Source: a virus. From it: a stretch of DNA of 64,000 bases. Under the pieces are notes generated by a model. It did no database searches and was not told the origin of the DNA. It was given only the letters and a program-made list of their open reading frames with translations. Below, in pieces: positions 1,179 through 32,044 of the stretch (position 1 is the first letter of the stretch; each line of letters opens with the position of its first letter). The DNA lies in the IMG/VR virus record IMGVR_UViG_3300021256_000064, positions 64,001 to 128,000 of that record; one strand, given 5' to 3'. The translations under genes were made by a program, and so were the position numbers.

Positions 1179-1253
1179 ATCACCCGACTGGGATTCGAAC
1201 CCAGGATCCGCGGTTTTAGAGACCGCTGTGTTAAGCCACTCCACTATCGGGCG
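1179..1253 (-). tRNA. amber suppressor tRNA, anticodon CUA (reads UAG), class I, A73, U8, G18G19
   Basis: anticodon stem GCGGT/ACCGC with loop CTCTAAA (plus-strand TAG at 1217-1219); acceptor CGCCCGA/TCGGGTG; T-arm CTGGG-(G)TTCGAAT-CCCAG. Confidence 0.75.
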
Positions 1254-4049: not shown

Positions 4050-4901
4050 TTAGAAAAATTCCTTGAGCAGAGCAGCCCTCCGCGGATTACGGAGTTTCTT
4101 AAGAGCGGTAGCTTCAATCTGACGAACTCGTTCTCTACTAATACCAAGTTCTTTACCAATTTCATCAAGCGTTTTTGCTCTATTCATACCAATACCAAAT
4201 CTATTTTTGATAATAAGCTGCTCGCGGTCAGTCAAAGTATTAAGGATATTCTGAACTGCTTCTTTTCTTTCGTCATCCTCAATATTCATAAAAGAATCTG
4301 CAACAGATTCATCTTCAATAAAAGAACCAACAGTAGTATCCTCGTCATCTCCAATAACTACATCAAGAGAAGAAGTATCTTTCATCCATGAATATGCTTC
4401 TTTAACTTTTTTAATATCAATTCCAAGAGCTTCCGCAATATCTGCTTCTTTCGGCTCTCTGTTATGAGACTGCTGGAAATCTCTTTCAGCTTTTTTAATT
4501 TTACTAATCAATTCAATAACATGAATTGGAATACGAATATTTCTAGTCTGGTCCATAACCGCACGAGAAATAGACTGTTTAATCCAATAGGTTGCATAAG
4601 TAGAAAATCTAAAACCTTTATCAACCTCATACTTTTCTGTTGCTTTAATCAGACCAAAATTACCTTCCTGAATAAGGTCAGAAAGAGTAAGCCCTCGTCC
4701 CATATACTTCTTAGCAATAGAAACAACAAGACGGAGATTATGGTTAATCAAAGCATTCTTTGCTCCCTGATTTCCTTTTGCGGCAGCCTCAGCATATCTT
4801 ACTTCATCCTCTTTTGAAAGAAGATTATACTGGCTAATTTCATTGAGATAAACTTTAATAGAATTAACAGTAGTTGCTTCAGACGCTTTAATTTCTGCCA
4901 T
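4050..4901 (-). CDS. phage-encoded sigma-70 family RNA polymerase sigma factor (regions 2-4 recognisable); no in-frame TAG
   Basis: 283 aa; YATYWIKQSI (region 2.x), TLDEIGKELGISRERVRQIEATALKKLR (region 4.2 HTH); AAGGAG RBS. Confidence 0.85.
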   Translation of the reverse strand: MAEIKASEATTVNSIKVYLNEISQYNLLSKEDEVRYAEAAAKGNQGAKNALINHNLRLVVSIAKKYMGRGLTLSDLIQEGNFGLIKATEKYEVDKGFRFSTYATYWIKQSISRAVMDQTRNIRIPIHVIELISKIKKAERDFQQSHNREPKEADIAEALGIDIKKVKEAYSWMKDTSSLDVVIGDDEDTTVGSFIEDESVADSFMNIEDDERKEAVQNILNTLTDREQLIIKNRFGIGMNRAKTLDEIGKELGISRERVRQIEATALKKLRNPRRAALLKEFF

Positions 4902-6819: not shown

Positions 6820-7224
6820 TTACTCTTCAACAGCTGTTGAAATTCTACGATAAGCCATTCTCTTCTTACCGTCCACTCTAACTGACTCCTTCTCAATAAG
6901 TCCTGCATTAACAAGCTTACCAAGTCTAGCAGTTACCTTAGCACGAGTAACTTCCTCGTCATCAAAAGCAACTGTAATCTCATCTACAGTAACAAGCTTA
7001 TCTGTAATAAGTTCATAGATTGCGTCTGTAAGAGCATCAGATTCAGCCTTTTTCTTCTCTGCGCGGGCTGCCGCAGCTGCCTTACGTTTATCAAGAGCTT
7101 CAATCTGCTTATCAATAAACTCTACATACTCTGTCTGCTTCTCTGCATCAGTTACTGTTGTAAGAACAAGTTCTCTAAGTTCCTCAAAATACATAGCCTT
7201 TGTTTTCTTTGTTGCGTTTTCCAT
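6820..7224 (-). CDS. winged-helix-like protein, distant member of the 117-aa paralog family
   Basis: 134 aa; shares Lys/Ala-rich linker and C-terminal R-x-T-x-R-L-x-x-L-V-x-x-G motif. Confidence 0.5.
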   Translation of the reverse strand: MENATKKTKAMYFEELRELVLTTVTDAEKQTEYVEFIDKQIEALDKRKAAAAARAEKKKAESDALTDAIYELITDKLVTVDEITVAFDDEEVTRAKVTARLGKLVNAGLIEKESVRVDGKKRMAYRRISTAVEE

Positions 7225-18777: not shown

Positions 18778-19031
18778 TGTTTAATTCCTTTCTTTATCTT
18801 ATGTATAAATTATAATAAATTTTAGGAAAAAAGTCAACATGGCATTTTATACAAAAGTGCGGCGAAAAATTTGTTGAATATTACATCTTGACAAATGGCG
18901 GGGCCCGGCGCTTGTCACCGGGCCGAACATTATATCATACCCGCATGAGGTTGTCAATAGGTAATTTTTAACAAAAAAATAGCCAGATTTTCGTCATTTT
19001 AACGAAAATCTGGCTGAAATTGTCAGATTAT

Positions 19032-19535: not shown

Positions 19536-19886
19536 TTACGCCATAGAGTAATAAGGGGTTTTCTTTACGTAAACCTTTACAAGCTTACCCTCTTTTACAA
19601 GGGCGGACAGCATGTGTGTCACACGCTGGTTTGTAAAGTTTGCAATAGAGGGGACACCGCCCTGAAGCTCGCGGATTGTCTTAGGCTGGTCTACCTCAAT
19701 CAGGTAGGCGACAATATCAGCCTTGCAACTGTCATTCTCAAGCTGAGTTGCGGTAGGCTTACGAGAAGCAGAACGCTTCTTGTCCAGAAGCTTAATCTCA
19801 TTATCAATGAAAGCCACCATATCAGCATTGTCAACAACTACTTCACGGATTGCTACGAACATCTCTCTCTTTGTCATACTAGACAC
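19536..19886 (-). CDS. 117-aa winged-helix-like paralog A
   Basis: about 55-60% identical to 21850..22206 and 24247..24603 (MSSMTKREMF...ITHLLSALVK..GK). Confidence 0.6.
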   Translation of the reverse strand: MSSMTKREMFVAIREVVVDNADMVAFIDNEIKLLDKKRSASRKPTATQLENDSCKADIVAYLIEVDQPKTIRELQGGVPSIANFTNQRVTHMLSALVKEGKLVKVYVKKTPYYSMA

Positions 19887-20100: not shown

Positions 20101-20246
20101 GAACTTTTTTTATTTTTTTCTTGACCGCCAAGGCTTTTTCCCTTACCTTGTATAGTAATTATATCAAAAAATTTTTAAAAAGTCAACAATGGAATAATGC
20201 ACTAATTTTGGGATTTTTGCGGATGAAATTTTGTTCAAATTGTCTA

Positions 20247-21520: not shown

Positions 21521-21732
21521 TGTTGTTTTCCTTTCCTTTATCTTATGTACTTATTATACATGATTACTTTTAGTTTGTCAAGAGTTTTTTTTTATTTTTT
21601 TTGATTGTTTTTGTGCTTTCCTCTTGACAATTATTATTATACATGAGGGGCGGTAGAAAGTCAATTAAAAGTTATAAAAAAGTTGCACAAATTACAGGAA
21701 AAAAATTTGTGCAACTTTTTTTCAAAAAATGC

Positions 21733-21832
21733 TTGACAAAAATACGCGGGGTGTGGTATAATGGATTTTGCGCGCCAACCCGGGCGTTGGCGCGCTGACA
21801 AAAAAAGACGCCCACTCAGTGGACGCCTTTTG
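21733..21832 (+). ncRNA. plus-strand unit 2: operator IR GTTGCACAAAT...ATTTGTGCAAC, promoter, 10-bp GC hairpin GCGCGCCAAC-CCGGGC-GTTGGCGCGC, terminator
   Basis: TTGACA 21733-38, TATAAT 21757-62; terminator GACGCCCACTCAGTGGACGCCTTTT. Confidence 0.55.
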
Positions 21833-21849
21833 TGTGAGTATTAGGAGCA

Positions 21850-22206
21850 TCACTCCGCCTTGAGAGCGAAGTGAGCAACTTTCTTGACGGTCGTACGCTC
21901 GACCTTGCCATCCTTAACCAGTGCGGACAGAAGATGTGTAATTCTCTGGTTGGTGAGGTCAGCGATAGATTCGCACACCTCACAGAGTTCCCTAATTGTG
22001 ACAGGCTTGTCAACAGTTGCGAGTGCGGAGAGAATATCAGCCTTGAAAGCCTCGTTCTCTACCTGTGTCTTAGTCGGCTTGCGGGTAGCACCGCTCTTAC
22101 GATTAAGAAGGTCGATTTCCTTGTCAATAAAAGCTACCATTTCAGCGTTATCAGCAACAACCTTACGAATTTCTGCGAACATTTCTTTCTTTGTCATACG
22201 AAGCAC
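21850..22206 (-). CDS. 117-aa winged-helix-like paralog B
   Basis: ORF track; paralog of 19536 and 24247. Confidence 0.6.
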   Translation of the reverse strand: MLRMTKKEMFAEIRKVVADNAEMVAFIDKEIDLLNRKSGATRKPTKTQVENEAFKADILSALATVDKPVTIRELCEVCESIADLTNQRITHLLSALVKDGKVERTTVKKVAHFALKAE

Positions 22207-22660
22207 CTCTTTCTTTTGTGTTTTTGTTTTTCTTATGTATTTATTATATTATATTTTTTTTATTTTGTCAATAGTTTTTTTAAGATTTTGAAAAGTTAAA
22301 GTTTCGCTTCCCAGAGCGAGTTGGACTTCAGCCCTGTATCCCACTCCACTTTGTACGATTTAGTCGACTTTACGTACTCGCCTTTATGGCTCATTTTGTG
22401 GGGCTTGCCCTTTCCTCATCTTGTATAATTATTATATCATATATTTAATTGTTTGTCAAGAAGAATTTTCAAAACTTTTTTTTGTTGGGGGAGTGGAGAA
22501 TGGAGCGTGCGCACGTAACTCTTTCTAACCTACTCTCAAGAACTATGTTTCTGTCATCTCCTGACATTGTGTATTATATCAAATACCCATAAGAATTACA
22601 ATAGTCAAAATACACAAAATTATGGGAAAATGTTTGTGCATTTTGCTGAGAAAGTTTTAC

Positions 22661-22755
22661 TTGACAAAAAATGCGGCGGTATGATATACTGGAATTTCGG
22701 CGCGAACCGGAGGCTCGCGCCCCGCCCAAAAGCAGGATTTAATAACCCTGCTCTT
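22661..22755 (+). ncRNA. plus-strand unit 3 (promoter TTGACA...TATACT, hairpin GGCGCGA-ACCGGAGGC-TCGCGCC)
   Basis: seen directly; terminator hairpin overlaps stop of 22739..23002. Confidence 0.45.
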
Positions 22756-23002
22756 CTGCTTCAAGATATTCCTCTTTTGAAATTTCTTCAACGTAAGCTT
22801 GAACATGCATTTCATATATTTCAATTTCATCCCAATTATCCATATCTTCGACAAACCGCTCATCAGGATAAGCAAAAGAGTATTCATCACAACAAATCTC
22901 GTCTGCTTCAGCCCAGGCTTCACTTTCAGATTCTGCTTGAATGTAAAAATGTTCATCACAACCACAATAGCCATTTGTGCAAGTTATTTTGTAATATTTC
23001 AT
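22739..23002 (-). CDS. highly acidic Cys-containing small protein (87 aa), DNA-mimic-like composition
   Basis: ORF track. Confidence 0.45.
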   Translation of the reverse strand: MKYYKITCTNGYCGCDEHFYIQAESESEAWAEADEICCDEYSFAYPDERFVEDMDNWDEIEIYEMHVQAYVEEISKEEYLEAEEQGY

Positions 23003-23143
23003 TTTAATACCTCACTTCCAACTAATGTAAAGTTTATAAAAACAAAACTCATGGTGATAATCACAATTTTCATTGTAATTATAACCCCAATAGGGGTCGT
23101 TCCAACGGTTCCAACCAATTTTAATTTTCATTTTTGTCTCCTT

Positions 23144-23371
23144 TCAATCTTCTTCTACAAGTTCCCCAAACAGCTCACATACTTCACGCCATTCACCATC
23201 ATTACTTGCAATAAATTCAAAGATTTCATCATCAGGTTCATCGGGGACGCCATCTCTAATCCAAATATCATAAACAAAGTCATCCCCCATATCAATGATG
23301 TAGTTATGCATACCTTTAAGAAGTTCAATTCTTCTTTCAATCTCACTCTGTTTCGTACTCTTAATTGTCAT
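23144..23371 (-). CDS. acidic small protein (75 aa)
   Basis: ORF track. Confidence 0.45.
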   Translation of the reverse strand: MTIKSTKQSEIERRIELLKGMHNYIIDMGDDFVYDIWIRDGVPDEPDDEIFEFIASNDGEWREVCELFGELVEED

Positions 23372-23608
23372 TTTTTTTATTTCCTTTCTTCTTTTGATGT
23401 TATTAGTATATCATAAGGAATTAGAGTTGTCAACCCCTTATTTTTTCATTTAGGCGGCTGTCGGGATGCGCTGCATCCTTTTTATCCGACATTTAATCAT
23501 CTTCGTCCGGTGACGCTCCGCAGATTTGCGGGTCTTCCGACTTGCATCCAGTGGAACCGCTTATGTTATTAGTATATCATAAGGGGTTGGAGTTGTCAAT
23601 CCCTTATT

Positions 23609-23800
23609 TTATCTTTCTCTAAAGAAATAATCAGTGAGTTCACTTTCATCTTTTTCGCTATAAGGACACATATAAGTTTCACGAGCTTCAGGTGGAAAAT
23701 ATTGAGGGTCATTGTGGTCTGCCCTAAGATAACAATATTTTTCAGGTGTCATTTCTACAACTTTTTCTACTCGCATTATATAAGAGATTTTAACTTTCAT
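23609..23800 (-). CDS. hypothetical protein (63 aa)
   Basis: ORF track. Confidence 0.4.
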   Translation of the reverse strand: MKVKISYIMRVEKVVEMTPEKYCYLRADHNDPQYFPPEARETYMCPYSEKDESELTDYFFRER

Positions 23801-24018
23801 TTGGTGTGTTCCTTTCTTTATCTTATGTATAAATTATAATAAATTTTAGGAAAAATGTCAAGTTGTAATTTTGCACAAAATACAAATCAAAAATTTGTAT
23901 AGTATCACATATTGACAAAACGCATCCCGCGGCGGTCCGTTGCGGGATGCCAAAAGGGGACTGCCTTCTACGACAGCCCCCACACCAAAAGAAAGGAAAA
24001 CAAATATTAGATTCTGAG

Positions 24019-24092
24019 TGAGGGTGAGGGGACTTGAACCCCCGACACCTAGATTAAAAGTCTAGTGCTCTAGCCAACTGAGCTACACCCTC
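24019..24092 (-). tRNA. tRNA-Lys(UUU) embedded in early region
   Basis: acceptor GAGGGTG/CACCCTC, D-arm GCTC-AGTTGGCTAGA-GCAC, anticodon stem CTAGA/TCTAG, loop CTTTTAA, T-loop TTCAAGT. Confidence 0.7.
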
Positions 24093-24246
24093 AAAATGGG
24101 CGGGCTTATATTGCAAGGCGCTCCGCCAGCCTTAGGACTATTCTACTTAGTTCGTTCTTTTAGGCAACTCGGCTTGAATTATCCCATATATAGAAAGCCT
24201 TTTCCTTTAATGCGGTTTTTAAGGATGACCGCAAACCCTTATGGAG

Positions 24247-24603
24247 TTAAGCGTAGGAGAAGTAAGCAACCTTCTTCACCTGTGTTCTGACTACTTTGCC
24301 ATCCTTAATGAGGGCTGTCAGAAGGTGTGTGATTCTCTGGTTCGTCAGCTCTGCAATAGAGGGGCAAACCGCACACAGTTCCTTGATTGTTACAGGCTTG
24401 TCAACCTCAATAAGAGAAGCAATAATGTCAGCCTTGAAGCCATCATTCTCAACCTGTGTCTTTGTGGGCTTGCGAGAAGCGGATTTCTTCTTATCCAGAA
24501 GCTTAATTTCGTTCTGGATGAAAGCTACCATGTCCTCATTCTCAGCTACTGCGGAAACCTTAAGCATTTCATTGTACATTTCTCTCTTCGTCATACTAGA
24601 CAC
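24247..24603 (-). CDS. 117-aa winged-helix-like paralog C
   Basis: ORF track. Confidence 0.6.
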   Translation of the reverse strand: MSSMTKREMYNEMLKVSAVAENEDMVAFIQNEIKLLDKKKSASRKPTKTQVENDGFKADIIASLIEVDKPVTIKELCAVCPSIAELTNQRITHLLTALIKDGKVVRTQVKKVAYFSYA

Positions 24604-24639
24604 CTCTTTCTTTTTTTATGTTTTGTTTTTTCTTTATCT

Positions 24640-25200
24640 TATGTATTTATTATAACTTATTTTTTTTATTTTGTCAAGAGTTTTTTTTATTTTTTTTATT
24701 TTGTTTTCGTGGGTTTGGCGCCTTATACCACGTGGCTGATAGCATTTTTGTTAGCCCCTTACATCCACCCTAACATGGGGCTTAAATCCTAACTCCCATA
24801 CACTTAATGTCCTTTTCTTTGCTTAACTTCTGTATTTATTATATCATATCTTTTTTAATTTGTCAATCACTTTTTTTATTTTTTTTCGGCGGGTCTCTCA
24901 TAAGATTGGCTCCTCTCCTGACTTTACTTACTTCCAACTTGAAAGTATGTCATCAACTTTTTTCGTATTTTTTAAAGTTTTTTCGGCGGGTCTCTCATAA
25001 GAATCAATCCTTTCTTTATCTTATGTATTTATTATACCATAAGATTTTTTATTTGTCAATAGTTTTTTTAAGATTTTTTGAAGTGACTTTCTTTTGTTCA
25101 GATAACCGATAGGCGCGAGGCTCTACCAATCACCCTACTTAATGTTGTTGTCCTTCCTTTATCTTGATATAATTATATCAAAAGTTTTTTAAAAAGTCAA
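24640..25200 (-). promoter_or_regulatory. four consecutive promoter modules without ORFs, separated by GC-richer filler; repeated motif CGGCGGGTCTCTCATAAGA (x2 here, x1 at 30331)
   Basis: TATTATA...TTGTCAA modules at about 24650-24700, 24835-24880, 25025-25070, 25160-25200. Confidence 0.45.
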
Positions 25201-25260
25201 CAACGGAATAATGCACTATTTTTGGGATATTTTTTTGTGCAACTTTTTTTCAAATTTCAC

Positions 25261-25364
25261 TTGACAAAATGTGCGGGACATGGTATAATGGTGATTTCGC
25301 GCCAGGCCGATGGCTGGCGCGCCGCTAATCTTTAAATAAAAAAAGAGGGTGTAAAACCCTCTTA
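25261..25364 (+). ncRNA. plus-strand unit 4 (hairpin GCGCCAG-GCCGATGG-CTGGCGC)
   Basis: TTGACA 25261-66, TGgTATAAT 25284-89. Confidence 0.5.
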
Positions 25365-25583
25365 ATTGCCCATTCTCAATTCTCGATTCAGTTCTCTTAC
25401 AATCCTTTTAGTCTCATCAAGACCGATTGTATTAATGGCTTCATTAATTTTGGAGAGGATTTCACGCTTACACTCATAACGTCTCTGCTCCTGTGCTTTC
25501 TTTTCTCTAATTTCCATTAAATATTTGTGGAGTGCTTCGCGTTCGTCTGCTGTAATAAGGTATCCCATGAATTCGTTTTTCAT
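25362..25583 (-). CDS. hypothetical protein (73 aa)
   Basis: ORF track. Confidence 0.45.
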   Translation of the reverse strand: MKNEFMGYLITADEREALHKYLMEIREKKAQEQRRYECKREILSKINEAINTIGLDETKRIVRELNRELRMGN

Positions 25584-25638
25584 TTTTTTATTTCCTTTCT
25601 TTTTGATGATTTAATTATACTACAGAAATTATTATCTG

Positions 25639-26094
25639 TCAAGACTTTTGTGTAAAAATAATTTCTGTACCAGTATAGAAAGAGCGAGTACTTATGACTT
25701 CTTTTTTAAACCCTTCTAATTCAAATTTATCATTGAGATATTCCTCAATTTTCCAATGGAATTTACTCCAAAAAAGGCGGTCTTTTATTTTTAAATATTT
25801 TTTTGCAAAACCTATAGTCCATCCTATCCCGTTGTCATAAAAGAAAAAGGTTTTATCATCAGGGTTCCAATCACTTATCTGAGGGATGTAATAAGTAAGA
25901 ATCTCATCGGCTCTTTTTTCATCCCAAGTTGTGCGCTCATAATTCCAATTTTTGATTCGGTCGCTAATTTCAACACAAATCCAAATAGGGAAGAGGATGA
26001 TTCTCATTACTTTATAATCATTTTTGTGCCACCAATCGCGGATGAGGTGCTTTTTCTGTTTATCTTCAATAGCTTTTAAGATTTCTTTATTCAT
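25639..26094 (-). CDS. hypothetical protein (151 aa)
   Basis: ORF track. Confidence 0.55.
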   Translation of the reverse strand: MNKEILKAIEDKQKKHLIRDWWHKNDYKVMRIILFPIWICVEISDRIKNWNYERTTWDEKRADEILTYYIPQISDWNPDDKTFFFYDNGIGWTIGFAKKYLKIKDRLFWSKFHWKIEEYLNDKFELEGFKKEVISTRSFYTGTEIIFTQKS

Positions 26095-26159
26095 TTTTTT
26101 ATTTCCTTTCTTTCTTTTGATATATTAATTATACTATGAAAAACTAAAATTGTCAATAG

Positions 26160-26399
26160 TTATTTTATTTTTTCAATAATTAACCAACCGCAATTAATAC
26201 GAGCTGAATCATTAACCCTTTCAATAATAGATGTTCCCCATCCATTAGCTTTTGAAAAAATCATTTGCTTTGCGGAGTCATAAGAGTTAAAAGCATGTGG
26301 ATATTCACCAAATTTAGTTGAAAGGTCATTCTCATCACAAAAGGCTATTACATATTGAGGGGTATTTATTTCTTTTTCTTTAGAAAATATAAAAAACAT
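26160..26399 (-). CDS. hypothetical protein (79 aa)
   Basis: ORF track. Confidence 0.45.
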   Translation of the reverse strand: MFFIFSKEKEINTPQYVIAFCDENDLSTKFGEYPHAFNSYDSAKQMIFSKANGWGTSIIERVNDSARINCGWLIIEKIK

Positions 26400-26465
26400 T
26401 ATTTAGCTCCTTTTCTTTTGATACACTAATTATACAGCATTCTTTTTGGAATGTCAAGGGGATTT

Positions 26466-26909
26466 TTACATCCCCTTGAGAATTTCAATAATTGAGTGGA
26501 CATCGAAAGCCTTGCCTGTCCAGTTTTCTCTGTTCTTAGATTCATCATCGAACAGAATATCATTAGTTGTGTTAGCGAACGTCTGTTTAGGAGTGCCATA
26601 AGGAACAATGTTAATTTCATCGAATTTTACACTTGCCAGATGCTTATTAAGCCATGCCATTTTAGCTTCCGTTACTTTTGTATCGTATGATGCGGTGGAT
26701 GTTTTAGAAAGCCAAGAGATAACGCCGATTCTGTAGCCCTGTTTCTGAAGTCTATTCAAAATGCGGGCAAGTGAATTGAGGTTGACAAGTGGCTTTGCAT
26801 TAGCGTACGGGAACGGGTCATATGCTCTAAGAAGGGGAAGCCAATTGGGGACACTGTAAAGGTCTGCGATTGTACCGTCCATATCAAAGTAGATTGTAGT
26901 AGCTGTCAT
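26466..26909 (-). CDS. HAD-superfamily phosphatase (5'-nucleotidase-like)
   Basis: FDMDGTIAD DxDGT motif near N-terminus; GAGGAG RBS. Confidence 0.65.
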   Translation of the reverse strand: MTATTIYFDMDGTIADLYSVPNWLPLLRAYDPFPYANAKPLVNLNSLARILNRLQKQGYRIGVISWLSKTSTASYDTKVTEAKMAWLNKHLASVKFDEINIVPYGTPKQTFANTTNDILFDDESKNRENWTGKAFDVHSIIEILKGM

Positions 26910-27036
26910 GTTTCTGTTCTCCTCTCTCTTGATGATACTATTATAGCATGGGGGCATTGGGGTGTCAACTATTTTCAATAAAAAAGTTGCACAAATTATG
27001 GGATAAAAATTTGTATTTTTTTGTGCAAAATTTCGC

Positions 27037-27134
27037 TTGACAAAATGGTGCGGCATGTGGTATAATGGTTGAACGGGCTGCGCCCGGCCGCCCCCGCGGC
27101 GACGAAAAAATAGAGGTAATTACCCCTATTTTTT
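27037..27134 (+). ncRNA. plus-strand unit 5
   Basis: TTGACA 27037-42, TATAAT 27061-66, GC tract GGGCTGCGCCCGGCCGCCCCCGCGGCG, terminator AGAGGTAATTACCCCT+T6. Confidence 0.5.
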
Positions 27135-27405
27135 AAATATGATAAAGTTTTCCGTCAAGGACGTAGATGACACCCTCAGAACCATCATACTCGTCAATCT
27201 CCCAATCAGTAGCTTCATCCGGAATATCTACAATAGCAAGTCGGGCACAATGACCATTTGCGGCTTTCCCTAAAGTGTTAACTACCTCGATTAGACGAGG
27301 GTCTGTTCGAGAGATTAGAGGATAACGAGTTTTAAACCCAAGCATCTGCAAAGCTTCATCTGAAAGACCAAAACCGCCAAAACAAGTATTAATGCAAATC
27401 TTCAT
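27133..27405 (-). CDS. hypothetical protein (90 aa)
   Basis: ORF track. Confidence 0.5.
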   Translation of the reverse strand: MKICINTCFGGFGLSDEALQMLGFKTRYPLISRTDPRLIEVVNTLGKAANGHCARLAIVDIPDEATDWEIDEYDGSEGVIYVLDGKLYHI

Positions 27406-27438
27406 TTTTTATTTCCTCTCTTTTCTTTATCTTATGTA

Positions 27439-27624
27439 TTAATTATAGCCTGCTTCTTTCATTTTGTCAAGCATTTTTTGAGAAGTTTTTAAATATTTAT
27501 ATTTTCTATTTTCTTCACACCAGGGGCAACCGCCATGATTTCTGCATCTTTTAGAAATTGCTTTTCCGCCAGAATAGGGGCGCCGATGTTCTTTTCCACT
27601 TGTGATTGATTTCATTAAAGACAT
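27439..27624 (-). CDS. small basic zinc-ribbon protein (61 aa)
   Basis: ORF track; CRNHGGCPWC. Confidence 0.45.
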   Translation of the reverse strand: MSLMKSITSGKEHRRPYSGGKAISKRCRNHGGCPWCEENRKYKYLKTSQKMLDKMKEAGYN

Positions 27625-28163
27625 TTTTATTTACCCCCTTTTTAATTTTCCTTAAGGTTTTTATAAAGTTCCGCCAGTTGCTCATACAGAACTCCAATTT
27701 CATAATCCAATTTAATTCTTTTTGCAAAACTCCGGCACTTATTATAAGCACGTCTTTTATCTTTAAGCTGTTTCTCTATCTCATCAATCTGAATTCTTGT
27801 CATTGTTTTAACTTCCTTTCTCTTGATGATATAATTATACTATAGGGGTTGAGATTTGTCAACCCCTATTTTAATTTTTTAATTCGGGAAGGCTTCCATC
27901 ATAGCCTTGTACTCATCAGGTGTCTTTGCCAGTCTATCAACAATACGCCACCAAAGATCCATTCGGTCAGAAATATTGGACTTATGACCAACCAGATATT
28001 CAAAATTTTCGATTGTTTTGTTGTAGATTGCGATTGCTTCTTCCATGTCTGTGTTCTCCTCTCTCTTGATGATACTAGTATAGCATAGCCTACATAAGAA
28101 GTCAAGTAAAATATTGCACAAATTTGGGAATTTTTTCAGCTAATTTTTTGTGCAAATTGCCAA

Positions 28164-28257
28164 TTGACAAAAGTTGGAAGGTATGCTATAATGGTTCGGC
28201 GGGCAGGCCCCGGCTGCCCGCGCGCCACTCAAAAAAGAGGGCTTAAGCCCCCTTTCT
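28164..28257 (+). ncRNA. plus-strand unit 6 (hairpin GCGGGCAG-GCCCCGG-CTGCCCGC)
   Basis: TTGACA 28164-69, TATAAT 28187-92, terminator AGAGGGCTTAAGCCCCCTTTCT. Confidence 0.5.
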
Positions 28258-28434
28258 GGCTCTCTCACGTCTCTTCTTTTCAGCTTTCAGTGCGTGCTCC
28301 CGCATCTGAAGCTTCACATTTTCTGGAGTTTCGTCTACAGGAAGCAGGTGAACCGCCTTAATACCCTCAGCCTTAGCAGTTGCAAAATTCTCAGTTACCT
28401 TACCGCCCTTTGTCTCGTATCTAACTGTTCTCAT
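28243..28434 (-). CDS. hypothetical basic protein (63 aa)
   Basis: ORF track. Confidence 0.45.
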   Translation of the reverse strand: MRTVRYETKGGKVTENFATAKAEGIKAVHLLPVDETPENVKLQMREHALKAEKKRRERARKGA

Positions 28435-28503
28435 TCTAATTTCTCCTTTTCTTTTGTTATCTTATATATAAATTATACTATTTTTCTTTTAAGTTGTCAA
28501 CAA

Positions 28504-28692
28504 TTATTTTTCATTTTCAAAAGGAACGTTTAAAGCTACAACCATAGCCAGTGTTACGATTTCATCAGAAACTGCTTTGTTTTCCGCCAGATTGCAAAAC
28601 CAAATTGTAGTTTCGTCCTCTAATCCTCTAAAAGTTGCGACCTTATTTTCCATTTCCATTCTAGACATAATTAATCCTCCATTTTGATCCAT
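28504..28692 (-). CDS. hypothetical protein (62 aa)
   Basis: ORF track. Confidence 0.4.
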   Translation of the reverse strand: MDQNGGLIMSRMEMENKVATFRGLEDETTIWFCNLAENKAVSDEIVTLAMVVALNVPFENEK

Positions 28693-28734
28693 ATATGAGG
28701 GGTTCGGTTCGTTTACCGAACCCCTAACCAGTTA

Positions 28735-28920
28735 TCAGATTCTAGCAAGAATCTTTGACATGATTTCATTGTGTGCGTTAAGAGCATCCATATACAGGCT
28801 ATCAGCTCTGCACCATGCTTCGAAGTTGTTTGCCCTTGTAGCTCTGACCAGTTCGGCATATGCACGATTAAGTTCTGTTCTAAGTTCCTGTTCCTTTGCT
28901 CTCATTTCTGTAAGTGTCAT
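28735..28920 (-). CDS. hypothetical protein (61 aa)
   Basis: ORF track; similar to 32146..32328 (MT..EMRAKE..L...AY.L..A). Confidence 0.45.
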   Translation of the reverse strand: MTLTEMRAKEQELRTELNRAYAELVRATRANNFEAWCRADSLYMDALNAHNEIMSKILARI

Positions 28921-29178
28921 TTTTGTTTTCCTCTCTTTCTTTATCTTATGTACTTATTATACATGATGTTTTTTATTTTGTCAAGGGGTTTTTTATTTTT
29001 TTTCAAGTTTCCAGATTGGATTTTTTGTTGTATCCCGTGTGCCGTCGGCATTGAAGAACCAAATTGCGCGATAATTATCCATTGAAATAATTACCATATT
29101 GCCAAACTCTTTTATTTGATAGCCACGGCTTCTATGAATACGAATGAATTTGTCTTTTGTCATTTTTTTGTTCTCCTT

Positions 29179-29361
29179 TCAAAAACCAATGTAGTGGTCA
29201 AACTGTCCGTCAATCCGACATTCAATGTACCAATCTTCTTCAGAACACATATCTTCTTCTAAAAGACAGCCAAAAGCGTGAGCATTTTCGTAAGAAGTAA
29301 ATGTATCTTCTTTAAAATGATGTCCCATACAATCAATCACCCACACCACATATTCAAACAT
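29179..29361 (-). CDS. acidic Cys/His small protein (60 aa)
   Basis: ORF track. Confidence 0.4.
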   Translation of the reverse strand: MFEYVVWVIDCMGHHFKEDTFTSYENAHAFGCLLEEDMCSEEDWYIECRIDGQFDHYIGF

Positions 29362-29449
29362 TTTTTTGTTCTCCTCTCTTGTTTCTGATATAATGATACT
29401 ACTTTTTTAGTCACTTGTCAAAGGATTTTTTTAATTTTTATGCGGTTTA

Positions 29450-29732
29450 GCATTTTGCACAAAAAGGCTTTAAAAAGTTTGTGCAATTTGCTATTTTTAT
29501 TTTTAGCTATTGACAAAAAATTTTTTGTGCAAACTGCACAATAACAGAGTGCTTCACTTGTGTAGTTTGCACAACTCCAGAAAAGTCAAGTAGAAATGTT
29601 GCACAAAAATGGGGCAGTTTTGGGCGTTCTTTTTGTGCAATTTGACGAGAAGCACATCTGCACCGATCTGTCAATGGGCAAATTGCACAAATTTGGGAAA
29701 AAATTGCGCTTAATCTTTGTGTAATTTGCCTA
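29450..29732. promoter_or_regulatory. dense array (8 or more) of TTGCACAAA / TTTGTGCAA operator half-sites upstream of unit 7 promoter
   Basis: seen directly. Confidence 0.6.
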
Positions 29733-29815
29733 TTGACAAAACCGCGAGGGTATGGTATAATGGTTGAACGGGCAAAGCCCGTGCGCCCACGGCGCGCCGA
29801 GCAAGAGCCGGAGCT
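29733..29815 (+). ncRNA. plus-strand unit 7 (hairpins ACGGGC-AAA-GCCCGT and GCGCC-CAC-GGCGC)
   Basis: TTGACA 29733-38, TGgTATAAT 29756-61. Confidence 0.45.
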
Positions 29816-30009
29816 TAGGAGAAGAATCTATTCCAAGCTTCCCACTCCTCAGTCCAGAGGTCCTCGATGTCTGTCCAATCGAGGTTCTCATCTCCGCTCA
29901 GCATAGCCGAACGAGCAAAGGCTGTAGCTTCCATAGCCTTGCGGTACTGCTCTACCTTGCGGTTTGTGAGGGTTGCTGTGATGCCGTCTGCGATAATGAT
30001 TGTTGTCAT
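29815..30009 (-). CDS. acidic small protein (64 aa)
   Basis: ORF track. Confidence 0.45.
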   Translation of the reverse strand: MTTIIIADGITATLTNRKVEQYRKAMEATAFARSAMLSGDENLDWTDIEDLWTEEWEAWNRFFS

Positions 30010-30094
30010 TTTTTTATCTCCTCTCTCTTGATGATTTTATTATATCAGATGGGATTGTTTTTGTCAACTACTTTTTTTTATTTTTTTTAGCGGA

Positions 30095-30180
30095 GCGAGT
30101 GGGAGTTGAACCCAAGAGAACTACTTGCTAGCATTTTCGTTCCCAGACGTCACCGTCTACCTACTTCCGTTCGGCTTACC
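30095..30180 (-). ncRNA. promoter-driven tRNA-like RNA (T-loop GGGTTCAACTCCC) occupying the slot where a module normally carries a CDS
   Basis: promoter 30185-30235 has ATCATCGGAAGG in place of RBS; transcript lacks ORF. Confidence 0.35.
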
Positions 30181-30418
30181 CTTCCGATGATTTTATTATA
30201 TCAAAGACTTTTTAGTTTGTCAACTACTTTTTTTATTTTTTGGTGAGGGATGGGAACTTGTCCGCTCACCGTGCCTGTATTCATCGCGCCCTAATGTCCC
30301 CAGGCTCTGGCGCATTTCTTTGGTTTGTTGGTTTTTACGGCGGGTCTCTCATTTCTGTGTTCCTCTCTTTTGATGATTTTATTATATCAGGTGGGGTTGA
30401 TTTTGTCAACCCCTTTTT

Positions 30419-30565
30419 TCAATTTTTTTCTTCTATTGTCATGTACTCTTCATAACCGAGGTTATCCCAAGCAGTATCTACATATTCGCAAGCCTCTTCA
30501 TAAGAATCGAATACTTCATCTACACTCCAGTTTCCACAGCAATCCATGAACCATACTTCGTACAT
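30419..30565 (-). CDS. acidic Cys-containing small protein (about 48 aa)
   Basis: internal ATG of ORF 30419..30622. Confidence 0.35.
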   Translation of the reverse strand: MYEVWFMDCCGNWSVDEVFDSYEEACEYVDTAWDNLGYEEYMTIEEKN

Positions 30566-30734
30566 TTTTGTTCTCCTCTCTCTTGATGATTCTATTATAT
30601 CAGATAGGTTGAAGTTTGTCAACCTTTTATTTTTATTTTTTAGAAGTTTTTGATATGAGTGGGAGATTTTCGACTTAGTTTAAAACTTACTCGCCTCGTC
30701 TGGGTGAACTTGCTTTAAAACACCCTTCGAAGTA

Positions 30735-30790
30735 AAGGAAGGAATCGAACCTTGTGTTGCTGTCAGCCTTTCTGACTGCCTTTACCTTAT
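30735..30790 (-). ncRNA. mini tRNA-like RNA at +1 of a promoter module: acceptor-like, D-arm-like and T-arm (AAGG-TTCGATT-CCTT) but no anticodon arm
   Basis: RC GGTAAAGGCAGTCAGAAAGGCTGACAGCAACACAAGGTTCGATTCCTTCCTTTACT. Confidence 0.3.
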
Positions 30791-31494
30791 GTTTTTATTA
30801 TACCAGAGGGGTTGAGGTTTGTCAACCCCTCTTTTTCATTTTTTTAATTTTCTTTGAGAAGCTCTTCAGCGATTTCCTCGGCTTCCGCCTCGGTGATTTC
30901 GTTGTATGCTACCATTCTGACCAGTTCTTCGAACATCATGTACTTCATTTTGCGTTCCTCGCTTTCTTTATCTTATGTACTTATTATATCAGATGTTTTG
31001 TAGTTTGTCAACTACTTTTTTTATTTTTTTGAAGCTTTCTACATTTCAGATGAACAACCGGCGCTTGGCTCGTCCGCCCACCCTATTCTGTTTTGTTGCT
31101 TCCTTTCTTTTGATGATTTAATTATATCATGGGGCTTGGCTTTTGTCAAGCCCCTTTTTTAATTTTTTTAAAAGATTTTTACGACTTTTCTGTCATCGTT
31201 ATCGTTATCTGTTGTGATAACCGCTGTTGTAGCATCTACATCTACAATACCATCCCAACCGCCATCCATAGCTGTCTGAACCGGAATGTTAAGTGCGTTA
31301 TTTGCTACTGCCCAGTTATAAAGATCCATGATTGTCATTTTTTTTACTTCCTTTCGTTTGTGTTTTTGTTTTCCTTTGATGATATAAGTATACCATCCTA
31401 GGTTTCTGTTGTCAATAGTTTTTTAAAAATCATATCAAAAATATTGCACAAAAATAGGAATTTATTTTTGTACATTTTGACGAATAAATTAGTC

Positions 31495-31904: not shown

Positions 31905-32044
31905 GTCTTTGTTCTCCTTTGCTTTTGTTTTCTTTTGATGATACTATTATAACGCTTACTTTATTAGTTGTCAATAGGTTTTCAACAAAAATATTGCACA
32001 ATTTTAGGTGATTTATTTTGTTACTTTTGACGAATAACTTAGTC

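Follow-up and report, generated by a model that had tools for sequence, protein, structure and literature searches.

The stretch analysed here (the window) comprises 64,000 nucleotides of a large phage, positions 64,001 to 128,000 of the IMG/VR record IMGVR_UViG_3300021256_000064, and carries in its early region repeated copies of a 9-bp half-site, TTGCACAAA (inverted, TTTGTGCAA), which are most densely clustered at 29450-29765, a segment referred to below as the hub. Judged from its sequence context, the element is a promoter-phased upstream site, probably for a factor of the Clostridia host, a reading to which we assign a probability of about one half. Its putative reader is more likely a host protein than one of the 117-residue proteins encoded by the phage, because the same site, at the same spacing, occurs both on the chromosomes of Clostridia and in phages with which this one has no protein in common. 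As a category, the element is a familiar one, a transcription-factor site upstream of promoters; as far as we have seen, there is no description in the literature of this motif, of its two-spacing rule or of its sharing between Clostridia and several unrelated phages. Literature on the 9-mer and its 8-mer returned only primers and unrelated eukaryotic sites, together with one lead, the Spx -44 element, which is considered below.

Seventeen exact copies of TTGCACAAA are present on the two strands of the window, compared with a mean of 1.24 and a maximum of 5 in 100 dinucleotide shuffles, and 15 of them fall in 21683-31452; at least 25 half-sites are spread across the 10-kb early region. An initial annotation of the window had proposed an operator at a fixed position by the -35 hexamers, and these counts confirm a genuine, non-random cis element. 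The spacer of 18-25 nucleotides given there requires correction, as the 9-mers are separated by exactly 14 or 24 bp: the bipartite unit is TTGCACAAA-N14-TTTGTGCAA or TTGCACAAA-N24-TTTGTGCAA, with start-to-start distances of 23 or 33 bp and a preference for GGCAnn in the outward flanks. Eight of the plus-strand small-RNA units possess a consensus promoter, and in every one of them the start of the distal half-site is exactly 50-51 bp upstream of the -35 hexamer; N24 pairs stand 8 bp from the plus-strand -35, and N14 pairs 18-19 bp. Outside the hub, the gap to the minus-strand -35 is 8-10, 18-19 or 28 bp. The claim that every plus-strand unit carries the same inverted repeat holds insofar as a pair is found at each; its quality is uneven (0-5 mismatches), with three non-hub pairs perfect and seven carrying two to five mismatches (Table 1). 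These non-hub pairs are shared by divergent promoters, one for a GC-hairpin small RNA on the plus strand and one for an early protein gene on the minus strand. Because of this sharing, the operator is not dedicated to the small-RNA family, as had been suggested: it is enriched at the units, as in related phage loci it precedes 31% of 172 GC-hairpin units and 2.9% of the 1140 consensus promoters of other kinds, but it also serves protein-gene promoters, both in the window and in other phages.

The geometry of the site was then compared across two sets of phage loci, one obtained by scanning viral contigs for half-sites paired over a spacer of 12-26 bp, which yielded at least 118 loci and is a sample, and the other of 53 loci fetched via the 117-residue protein family rather than selected by motif. 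Among the matches listed, at least 54 sites have a total length of 32 bp and at least 49 a length of 42 bp, with 1-10 sites at each of the other lengths. The 53 family-fetched loci contain 137 pairs (up to two mismatches) at N13-15 or N23-25 versus three at control spacings, and 106 of their 154 exact half-sites are partnered, at 22-23 bp (67) or 33-34 bp (33). Around 100 non-redundant sites, 45 of 51 near-consensus promoters are in phase with the site (binomial p = 3e-15), in-phase gaps to the -35 being 7-10, 17-20, 27-30 and 37-40 bp; the individual gaps cluster at 8-9 (26 promoters), 18-19 (14), 28-30 (four) and 39 bp (one), with six elsewhere, and displaced control windows show no phasing pattern. 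Each half-site faces its own promoter and solo half-sites keep the same gaps to the -35 as paired ones; therefore, the basic unit is 5'-TTTGTGCAA-N8/18-TTGACA. The divergent-promoter geometry is also found in other phages, L010, L031, L085, L089 and L106 among them, and elsewhere the site-linked promoters lead into either a GC-hairpin unit or a regular protein gene that has a Shine-Dalgarno sequence. Steps of 10 bp, in the spacer as in the -35 distance, are what would result from a protein that binds double-stranded DNA from one side of the helix and interacts with RNA polymerase; they are not what an RNA hairpin should give.

Class I activator sites, such as those of CRP, are centred upstream at -61.5, -71.5 or -82.5 and depend on the RNA polymerase alpha subunit's C-terminal domain (alpha-CTD). 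Like them, the site described here lies upstream of the -35 at positions that differ by whole turns (gaps of 8, 18 and 28 bp), uses one helix face and can serve divergent promoters, and upstream centring with whole-turn spacing is observed in the phased promoters, in the window and for solo half-sites. Unlike them, it has an unrelated sequence, its half-sites are 23 or 33 bp apart rather than ~11, and many of the promoters it serves match the consensus perfectly as they stand. From one face of the helix, a bound protein could contact RNA polymerase via alpha-CTD, in the style of a class I activator, and would modulate both divergent promoters. Activation is favoured over repression because the site-linked minus-strand promoters are imperfect while the site-less early ones match the consensus perfectly: six of nine site-linked promoters score 11/12, versus two of 32 site-less ones (Fisher p = 4.5e-4). 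The site would then define a class of regulated early promoters amid ~30 unregulated consensus promoters. The small-RNA units form bidirectional modules with protein genes. The rule TTTGTGCAA-N8/18-TTGACA may in addition serve as a portable promoter architecture for organisms with few genetic tools.

The site is not confined to large phages. Among the matches listed, about 22 complete 13-kb phi29-like phage genomes (GC content 50%) bear the N24 site inside their inverted terminal repeats, where it starts 17-20 nt from both physical ends; in L018, an Illumina adapter remnant marks the true genome end. The 14.5-kb genome L062 (GC content 32%) carries the N24-type site, here with an N26 spacing, likewise within its inverted terminal repeats and at that distance from both ends, with an inward promoter at a gap of 29 bp. 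Both the 13-kb phages and L062 encode DNA_pol_B_2, a protein-primed type-B polymerase, and a profile hidden Markov model search at E ≤ 10 found no homolog of the 117-residue family in either. Neither the large phages nor the window have any protein family in common with the 13-kb phages, Pfam reveals no recognisable regulator among the small early proteins of the phi29-like phages, and the Clostridium symbiosum phage CS229P2, the closest cultured relative of the small phages, is without the site. A third group comprises mobile elements of higher GC content (L001, L009, L019, L035, L057, L082 and L087), in which an N14/N15 pair lies in a divergent control region, interleaved with the elements' own repeats (gcacggtacaggg) and with TTGACA at a gap of 24 bp.

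In bacterial genomes, of which the scan sampled at least 120 loci, the matches listed form a flat background over spacings and phyla plus a peak at N14. Clostridia account for 40 of the 44 N14 matches listed, versus 16 of 59 at other spacings (p = 2e-9), and the carriers belong to Oscillospiraceae, Acutalibacteraceae, Ruminococcus, 'Eubacteriales' and Lachnospiraceae; Anaerotignum neopropionicum DSM 3847 and Ruminococcus flavefaciens are examples of cultured carriers. About 80% of the chromosomal sites listed are intergenic, and among the genes beside them are secA, pyrG, rpe, plsY, a Mur ligase, an OppA-type substrate-binding protein, MsmK-type ATPases, an extracytoplasmic function (ECF) sigma factor and a TetR/aminotransferase divergon. 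Orthologous loci from different species keep the arms while the spacers diverge, as in a footprint (sets in Table 1), and the flank preference, GGCAnn, is common to phage and bacterial sites. In three metagenome-assembled genomes of Clostridia (L165, L172 and L189), a TetR-family gene and a class-III aminotransferase gene are divergent, and the N14 site is found 19 bp upstream of the TetR-family start codon; its arms are conserved in the three species and its spacers differ. This single bacterial case looks like a local arrangement; an autoregulated regulator gene standing always beside the site was considered and rejected, as the neighbours are diverse.

On the host-factor reading, a Clostridia DNA-binding protein would have been co-opted by the phage, which would couple a subset of its early genes and small RNAs to a host signal. 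More tentatively, the site may be the regulon mark of an undescribed, Clostridia-wide factor that was captured independently by at least three unrelated lineages of gut phages and mobile elements: the TAG-recoded large phages, at divergent early promoters; the phi29-like phages, beside terminal origins; and the higher-GC group, in its divergent control region. Were this so, the phages would read one host physiological signal, as phi29 reads Spo0A, and the hub would be a high-avidity sensor, or a sink, for the host factor. If the factor is indeed one of the host, the 9-bp half-site gives access to an undescribed global regulator in gut Clostridia, mostly uncultured Oscillospirales, part of whose predicted regulon would consist of peptide and sugar transport, an ECF sigma factor and housekeeping genes, and several unrelated phages would converge on one host signal.

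Several results weigh against a host activator. The plus-strand small-RNA promoters are already perfect (12/12, with an extended -10) and so should not need an activator, and no candidate for the host binder fits among the known boxes, neighbours and shared families examined. Within the large-phage clade, the site co-occurs with the 117-residue family, 33 of the 53 family-bearing loci having a pair within 10 kb. The 13-kb phages constitute one closely related lineage plus L062, and therefore few independent observations, and both collection scans are samples. The N24 spacing, common in phages, is not enriched in bacterial genomes (two of nine listed matches are from Clostridia), such that phage usage differs from host usage, and the bacterial sites stand ~22-25 and 32-35 bp from host promoters, that is, on the opposite helical face. 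As for the hub, its comparative footprint consists of just identical copies or no ortholog, with no diverged ortholog among them, and the additional copies in it may lack any separate role.

The hub contains six exact half-sites, at 29455(+), 29478(-), 29524(-), 29599(+), 29632(-) and 29683(+), and two with one mismatch, at 29567 (TTGCACAAC) and 29716 (TTACACAAA). The figure of eight or more in the initial annotation therefore stands provided that one mismatch is allowed; further-degenerate copies lie at 29534 (CTGCACAAT) and 29557. They are arranged as three pairs (A, C and D) and a messy block (B). Pair A is 33 bp from the minus-strand -35 (29421) and 23 bp from a plus-strand TTGACA, gaps that match those of the bacterial sites. 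Block B includes a tight palindrome, TTTGTGCAA-a-CTGCACAA (29524-29541), and a degenerate N14 pair (29534-29565; 2+3 mismatches). Only the outermost promoters of the hub, 29421(-) and 29733(+), are complete, and the four -35-like hexamers between them lack a -10, for which reason the hub resembles a tandem array of the bidirectional module, in three to four copies whose inner promoters have decayed. Such copies would have arisen by tandem duplication, and the high local density of sites could raise occupancy upstream of unit 7, the small-RNA unit at the right edge of the hub; alternatively, they could act as a sink or be debris. Unit 7 lacks its own terminator and, alone among the units, gives a transcript that continues, antisense, into early genes: it runs into the gene at 29815-30009, and the first strong plus-strand terminator, at 30393-30413, is built into a minus-strand promoter.

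The initial annotation had named as the regulator the 117-residue paralogs, of which the window encodes three and a more distant fourth. They would be a dedicated phage regulator that binds the inverted repeat as dimers or tetramers and controls the small-RNA family, a proposal we now regard as unlikely. In its favour, the structure prediction called for in that annotation gave a confident AlphaFold (AF2) model (predicted local distance difference test score, pLDDT, 89), in which two N-terminal helices, which could dimerise, are followed by a basic linker and a C-terminal winged helix (secondary structure H-H-H-H-H-E-E). Foldseek relates this model to the winged-helix domains of ArsR, CadC, SmtB, PcaV, Zur and Rpc34 (probability ~1, E 4e-3 to 4e-2), the nearest solved folds being of the ArsR/CadC/SmtB, MarR, Fur/Zur and Rpc34 types. 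It is the only recognisable DNA-binding fold among the 56 early proteins of the window besides the sigma factor, Pfam detecting no transcription-factor domain in them other than that of the sigma factor. Homologs are encoded by 20-24 of the at least 118 motif-selected loci, the co-occurrence within 10 kb described above points the same way, and phi29 p4 sets a precedent for a small phage protein acting on long-spacer inverted repeats between divergent promoters. Curated sequence profiles do not support a MarR/ArsR-type assignment of the modelled winged helix-turn-helix: the Pfam matches are sub-threshold (MarR_2, 15.9-16.7 bits; cutoff 27), PHROGs gives only sub-threshold winged-helix matches, and the best PDB profile match is the Hop2 winged helix (E = 0.015). 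The family has more than 1000 members, all metagenomic, none annotated and none with a Pfam domain. Of the three genes said to adjoin units, the one at 21850 does so, and those at 19536 and 24247 do so only loosely. The regulator proposal is undermined above all by the dissociation of site and family in both directions. The site occurs without the family in the complete phi29-like genomes and in Clostridia chromosomes, where only one of at least 120 site loci has a homolog nearby, apparently on a phage contig. The family occurs without the site in 20 of the 53 family-bearing phage loci, which have no pair within ±10 kb, and in L249 and L250, which have no exact half-site in 17-19 kb and retain intact small-RNA units. 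Furthermore, P0011, the paralog of L249 and L250, and P0007 have an identical recognition-helix region (LSNQRITHMLTDLRKDGKV), and perfect pairs are kept only in the P0007 phages; where the pair has been lost, no covarying palindrome replaces it. Across the 53 loci, the family tracks the small-RNA units (46 loci) and a second element, TTYRGGA, more closely than it tracks the pair.

The remaining alternatives concern the hub itself. It is quite unlikely, in our estimate, that its amplification is mere tandem-duplication debris in which function is retained by pair D (with 29733), perhaps by pair A (with 29421), and by nothing else. The inner -35-like hexamers without a -10, the degeneracy of block B, the atypical gaps of pair A, the absence of the hub from the moderately diverged relatives L247-L250 and the confinement of its paralogous similarity to other units to the part from pair D to the RNA (74%) all agree with such an origin, but pairs A and C have remained perfect (18/18) while their promoters decayed, which argues for continued selection on the sites, and the starts of pairs C and D are 84 bp apart, exactly 8.0 helical turns. 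We consider it improbable that the hub is a decoy or sponge, whose replication-amplified sites titrate a global host regulator without regulating unit 7. This idea draws on the same evidence for a host factor, on the density of sites (at least eight half-sites in 300 bp, besides those elsewhere in the early region) and on the dead inner promoters, because of which the extra sites would regulate nothing nearby; yet relatives lack the hub, most sites elsewhere are single and promoter-phased, implying local regulation, and the copies are rather few to titrate an abundant factor. That the repeats are no transcriptional operator at all, and instead form an iteron-type replication origin or RNA hairpins or terminators, is very improbable. 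The cluster adjoins AT-rich DNA, the site lies beside terminal origins in phi29-like phages, and the palindrome at 29525-29541, followed by a T-run, was flagged as a weak terminator-like hairpin on the minus strand. Against an origin, the repeats are inverted pairs rather than direct iterons, no initiator is found among the early proteins, and the cumulative GC skew does not change at 29.5 kb. Against an RNA, the 9-mer arms are rich in A/T, the loops measure 14 or 24 nt, a U-tract is absent, quantisation by 10 bp is characteristic of double-stranded DNA, and Rfam, searched at the gathering threshold and at E ≤ 1, returned no match for the operator or the units, only chance miRNA-like ones (E 0.3-0.7).

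The TTYRGGA element is specific to the units. It starts 40-41 bp upstream of the -35 in 91 of 172 GC-hairpin units (53%) versus four of 1140 other consensus promoters (0.35%), appears in the window as 'tttGGGAa' adjoining the distal half-site, and is retained in phages without the TTGCACAAA pair (L256, L280, L282-L284 and L290). If the paralogs bind DNA at the units, TTYRGGA (TTTTGGGA) would be a better candidate than the pair, and this element may be what a phage factor really targets.

Several known systems share parts of this architecture. In the phi29 p4 switch, inverted repeats with a spacer of ~15 bp lie between divergent promoters, and the host regulator Spo0A has sites at the early promoters of phi29 and near its terminal origins. 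The N14 and N24 pairs are likewise long-spacer inverted repeats between divergent promoters in a phage control region and, like the Spo0A sites, are found both at phage promoters and in phi29-like inverted terminal repeats. Unlike in phi29, there is no p4 homolog, and the paralogs are modelled with a winged helix and not the fold of p4; relative to the 0A box TGTCGAA, the half-site TGTGCAA has its two central bases swapped; and the site also stands next to host housekeeping genes. ComK of Bacillus subtilis binds K-boxes composed of two AAAA-N5-TTTT dyads that are 8, 18 or 31 bp apart. The two recognition units, the whole-turn variation in the spacer and the location upstream of the -35 are common to both systems, and since the spacer varies by whole turns, two DNA-binding units on one face are suggested here also; the site sequence, however, is not AAAA-N5-TTTT, and ComK is a protein of Bacilli. 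HrcA, a winged-helix repressor with a chaperone-gene regulon, recognises CIRCE, TTAGCACTC-N9-GAGTGCTAA. CIRCE is similarly a 9-bp inverted repeat with a non-conserved spacer and a comparable arm core (GCAC/GTGC), but it differs in arm sequence and in its spacer of 9 bp rather than 14 or 24, and the neighbour genes here are diverse.

The Spx -44 element is read by a cofactor together with alpha-CTD. In the trxB promoter of B. subtilis, it consists of AGCA at -45 to -42 followed by an A-tract (PMC2801614), and, like the present site, it is a short element just upstream of the -35 (TTGAGCAAAAAAA in trxB versus TTGTGCAA(a/t) here; PMC2801614). The present motif has TGCA (A to T), its GC falls at about -47/-46 at a gap of 8 bp, 3 bp further upstream, its elements are paired, and the second class, another 10 bp upstream, is out of reach of sigma region 4; an identity with the -44 element was therefore rejected on register (PMC2801614). 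The Spo0A box, CIRCE, sigma-54 and LacI- and GntR-type boxes were also rejected as the identity of the site, on sequence or register, as were readings of GGCAnnTTGCA and TTGCAC-N17-TTTGTG as sigma-54 or alternative-sigma promoters, on the basis of spacing and of the N24 class.

Table 1. Positions of half-site pairs, hub components and other features in the window, and loci named by handle in other genomes. Gaps are distances from pair to -35 hexamer; promoters are named by the position of the -35.
Feature	Position or locus	Strand	Remarks
N14 pair, degenerate	18847-18878		2+2 mismatches; 18837(-) gap 9; plus promoter decayed
N24 pair, degenerate	20197-20238		2+1 mismatches; between 20186(-) gap 10 and 20247(+) gap 8
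N14 pair, perfect	21683-21714		between 21664(-) gap 18 and 21733(+) gap 18
N14 pair, degenerate	22610-22641		2+1 mismatches; between 22601(-) gap 8 and 22661(+) gap 19
N14 pair	23871-23902		0+3 mismatches; 23861(-) gap 9; plus-side TTGACA 23912 without -10
N14 pair	25211-25242		3+0 mismatches; between 25200(-) gap 10 and 25261(+) gap 18
N24 pair, perfect	26987-27028		between 26968(-) gap 18 and 27037(+) gap 8
N24 pair, perfect	28114-28155		between 28105(-) gap 8 and 28164(+) gap 8
N14 pair	31444-31475		0+2 mismatches; between 31415(-) gap 28 and 31495(+) gap 19
N14 pair, degenerate	31994-32025		1+4 mismatches; between 31974(-) gap 19 and 32045(+) gap 19, -10 TATGCT
Hub left outer promoter, TTGACA-17-TATCAT	29393-29421	-	11/12; promoter of 60-aa gene 29179-29361
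Hub pair A, TTGCACAAA-N14-TTTGTGCAA	29455-29486		perfect
Pseudo -35 TTGACA	29510-29515	+	decayed module-A promoter; no -10 hexamer 16-18 bp downstream
Hub block B, messy	29524-29575		exact half-site 29524(-); half-site TTGCACAAC at 29567
Pseudo -35 TTGACT	29584-29589	-	gap 9 to pair C; no -10
Hub pair C, N24	29599-29640		perfect
TTGACG	29642-29647	+	gap 1 to pair C; no -10
Pseudo -35 TTGACA	29669-29674	-	8 bp from pair D; no -10
Hub pair D, N24	29683-29724		0+1 mismatch; inner TTTGGGAA element; 8 bp upstream of unit-7 -35
Unit 7 promoter, TTGACA-17-TGgTATAAT	29733-29761	+	12/12, extended -10; TTGACA 29733-29738, TATAAT 29756-29761
Unit 7 transcript, 5' part	29768-29815	+	GC-rich hairpins
TTYRGGA examples	26996-27003, 28123-28130, 29692-29699		
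117-aa paralog (115 aa from ATG)	21850-22197	-	N-terminal helices and C-terminal winged helix (model)
Other 117-aa family copies	19536-19877, 24247-24594	-	
More distant family member	6820-7224	-	
GC-hairpin small-RNA family members	20247, 21733, 22661, 25261, 27037, 28164, 29733, 31495, 32045	+	
GC-hairpin small-RNA family members	18957, 17290	-	
-35-embedded terminators	23579-23607, 27842-27869, 30393-30413, 30606-30625, 30805-30832, 31131-31154	+	
Suppressor tRNA	1180-1253	-	anticodon CTA
Sigma-70-family factor, full-length	4050-4901	-	Pfam regions 1.2, 2, 3 and 4 above threshold
Lone tRNA-Lys(TTT) in early region	24018-24092	-	between decayed unit 23871-23960 and paralog 24247-24594
Convergently flanked GC hairpins	L031 ~2981/6280; L089 ~1932; L105 ~1195/7229; window 18889-18957		
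phi29-like site-bearing phages	L018, L029, L074, L092, L103, L114; L062		13 kb; L062, 14.5 kb
Footprint sets, orthologous chromosomal loci	L165/L172/L189; L198/L220/L235; L201/L207; L185/L187		

The phage encodes 11 tRNAs in the window, including the CTA suppressor. The late genes (35852-64000, plus strand) form long contiguous open reading frames only when TAG is read as sense, and the early minus-strand genes use the standard code. The GenBank phage collection gave no DNA match and a single protein match, to an uncultured entry, so that it offers no cultured relative of the large phage. From 17 to 35.8 kb, tiny early genes occupy the minus strand, nearly all with their own perfect TTGACA-17-TATAAT promoter, and a promoter scan of the early region scored ~45 promoters at 11/12 or better. 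The plus-strand units are dispersed among these genes; ten are recognisable, eight of them with a consensus promoter. Each unit has a consensus promoter, its -10 extended, and behind it a GC-rich hairpin of 40-60 nt; most read into the bidirectional terminator of a converging minus-strand gene.

The GC-hairpin RNAs start at about GGAAAUUUCG and have a GC stem of 8-16 bp; the 172 copies in related phage loci are non-redundant, and many loops contain GGA or GGAGG. Alignment of 22 small-RNA units with MAFFT, followed by RNAalifold, recovered only five base pairs, because the alignment was not structure-aware. The GC hairpin neighbouring the pair at 18847 is now read from the minus-strand promoter at 18957. 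Some GC hairpins have convergent consensus promoters on either side, such that both of their strands would be transcribed. Lastly, intrinsic terminators acting on the plus strand are formed around the -35 of minus-strand promoters (GGGGTTGACAAA..CAACCCC plus a T-run), and these would halt antisense transcription at each early promoter.

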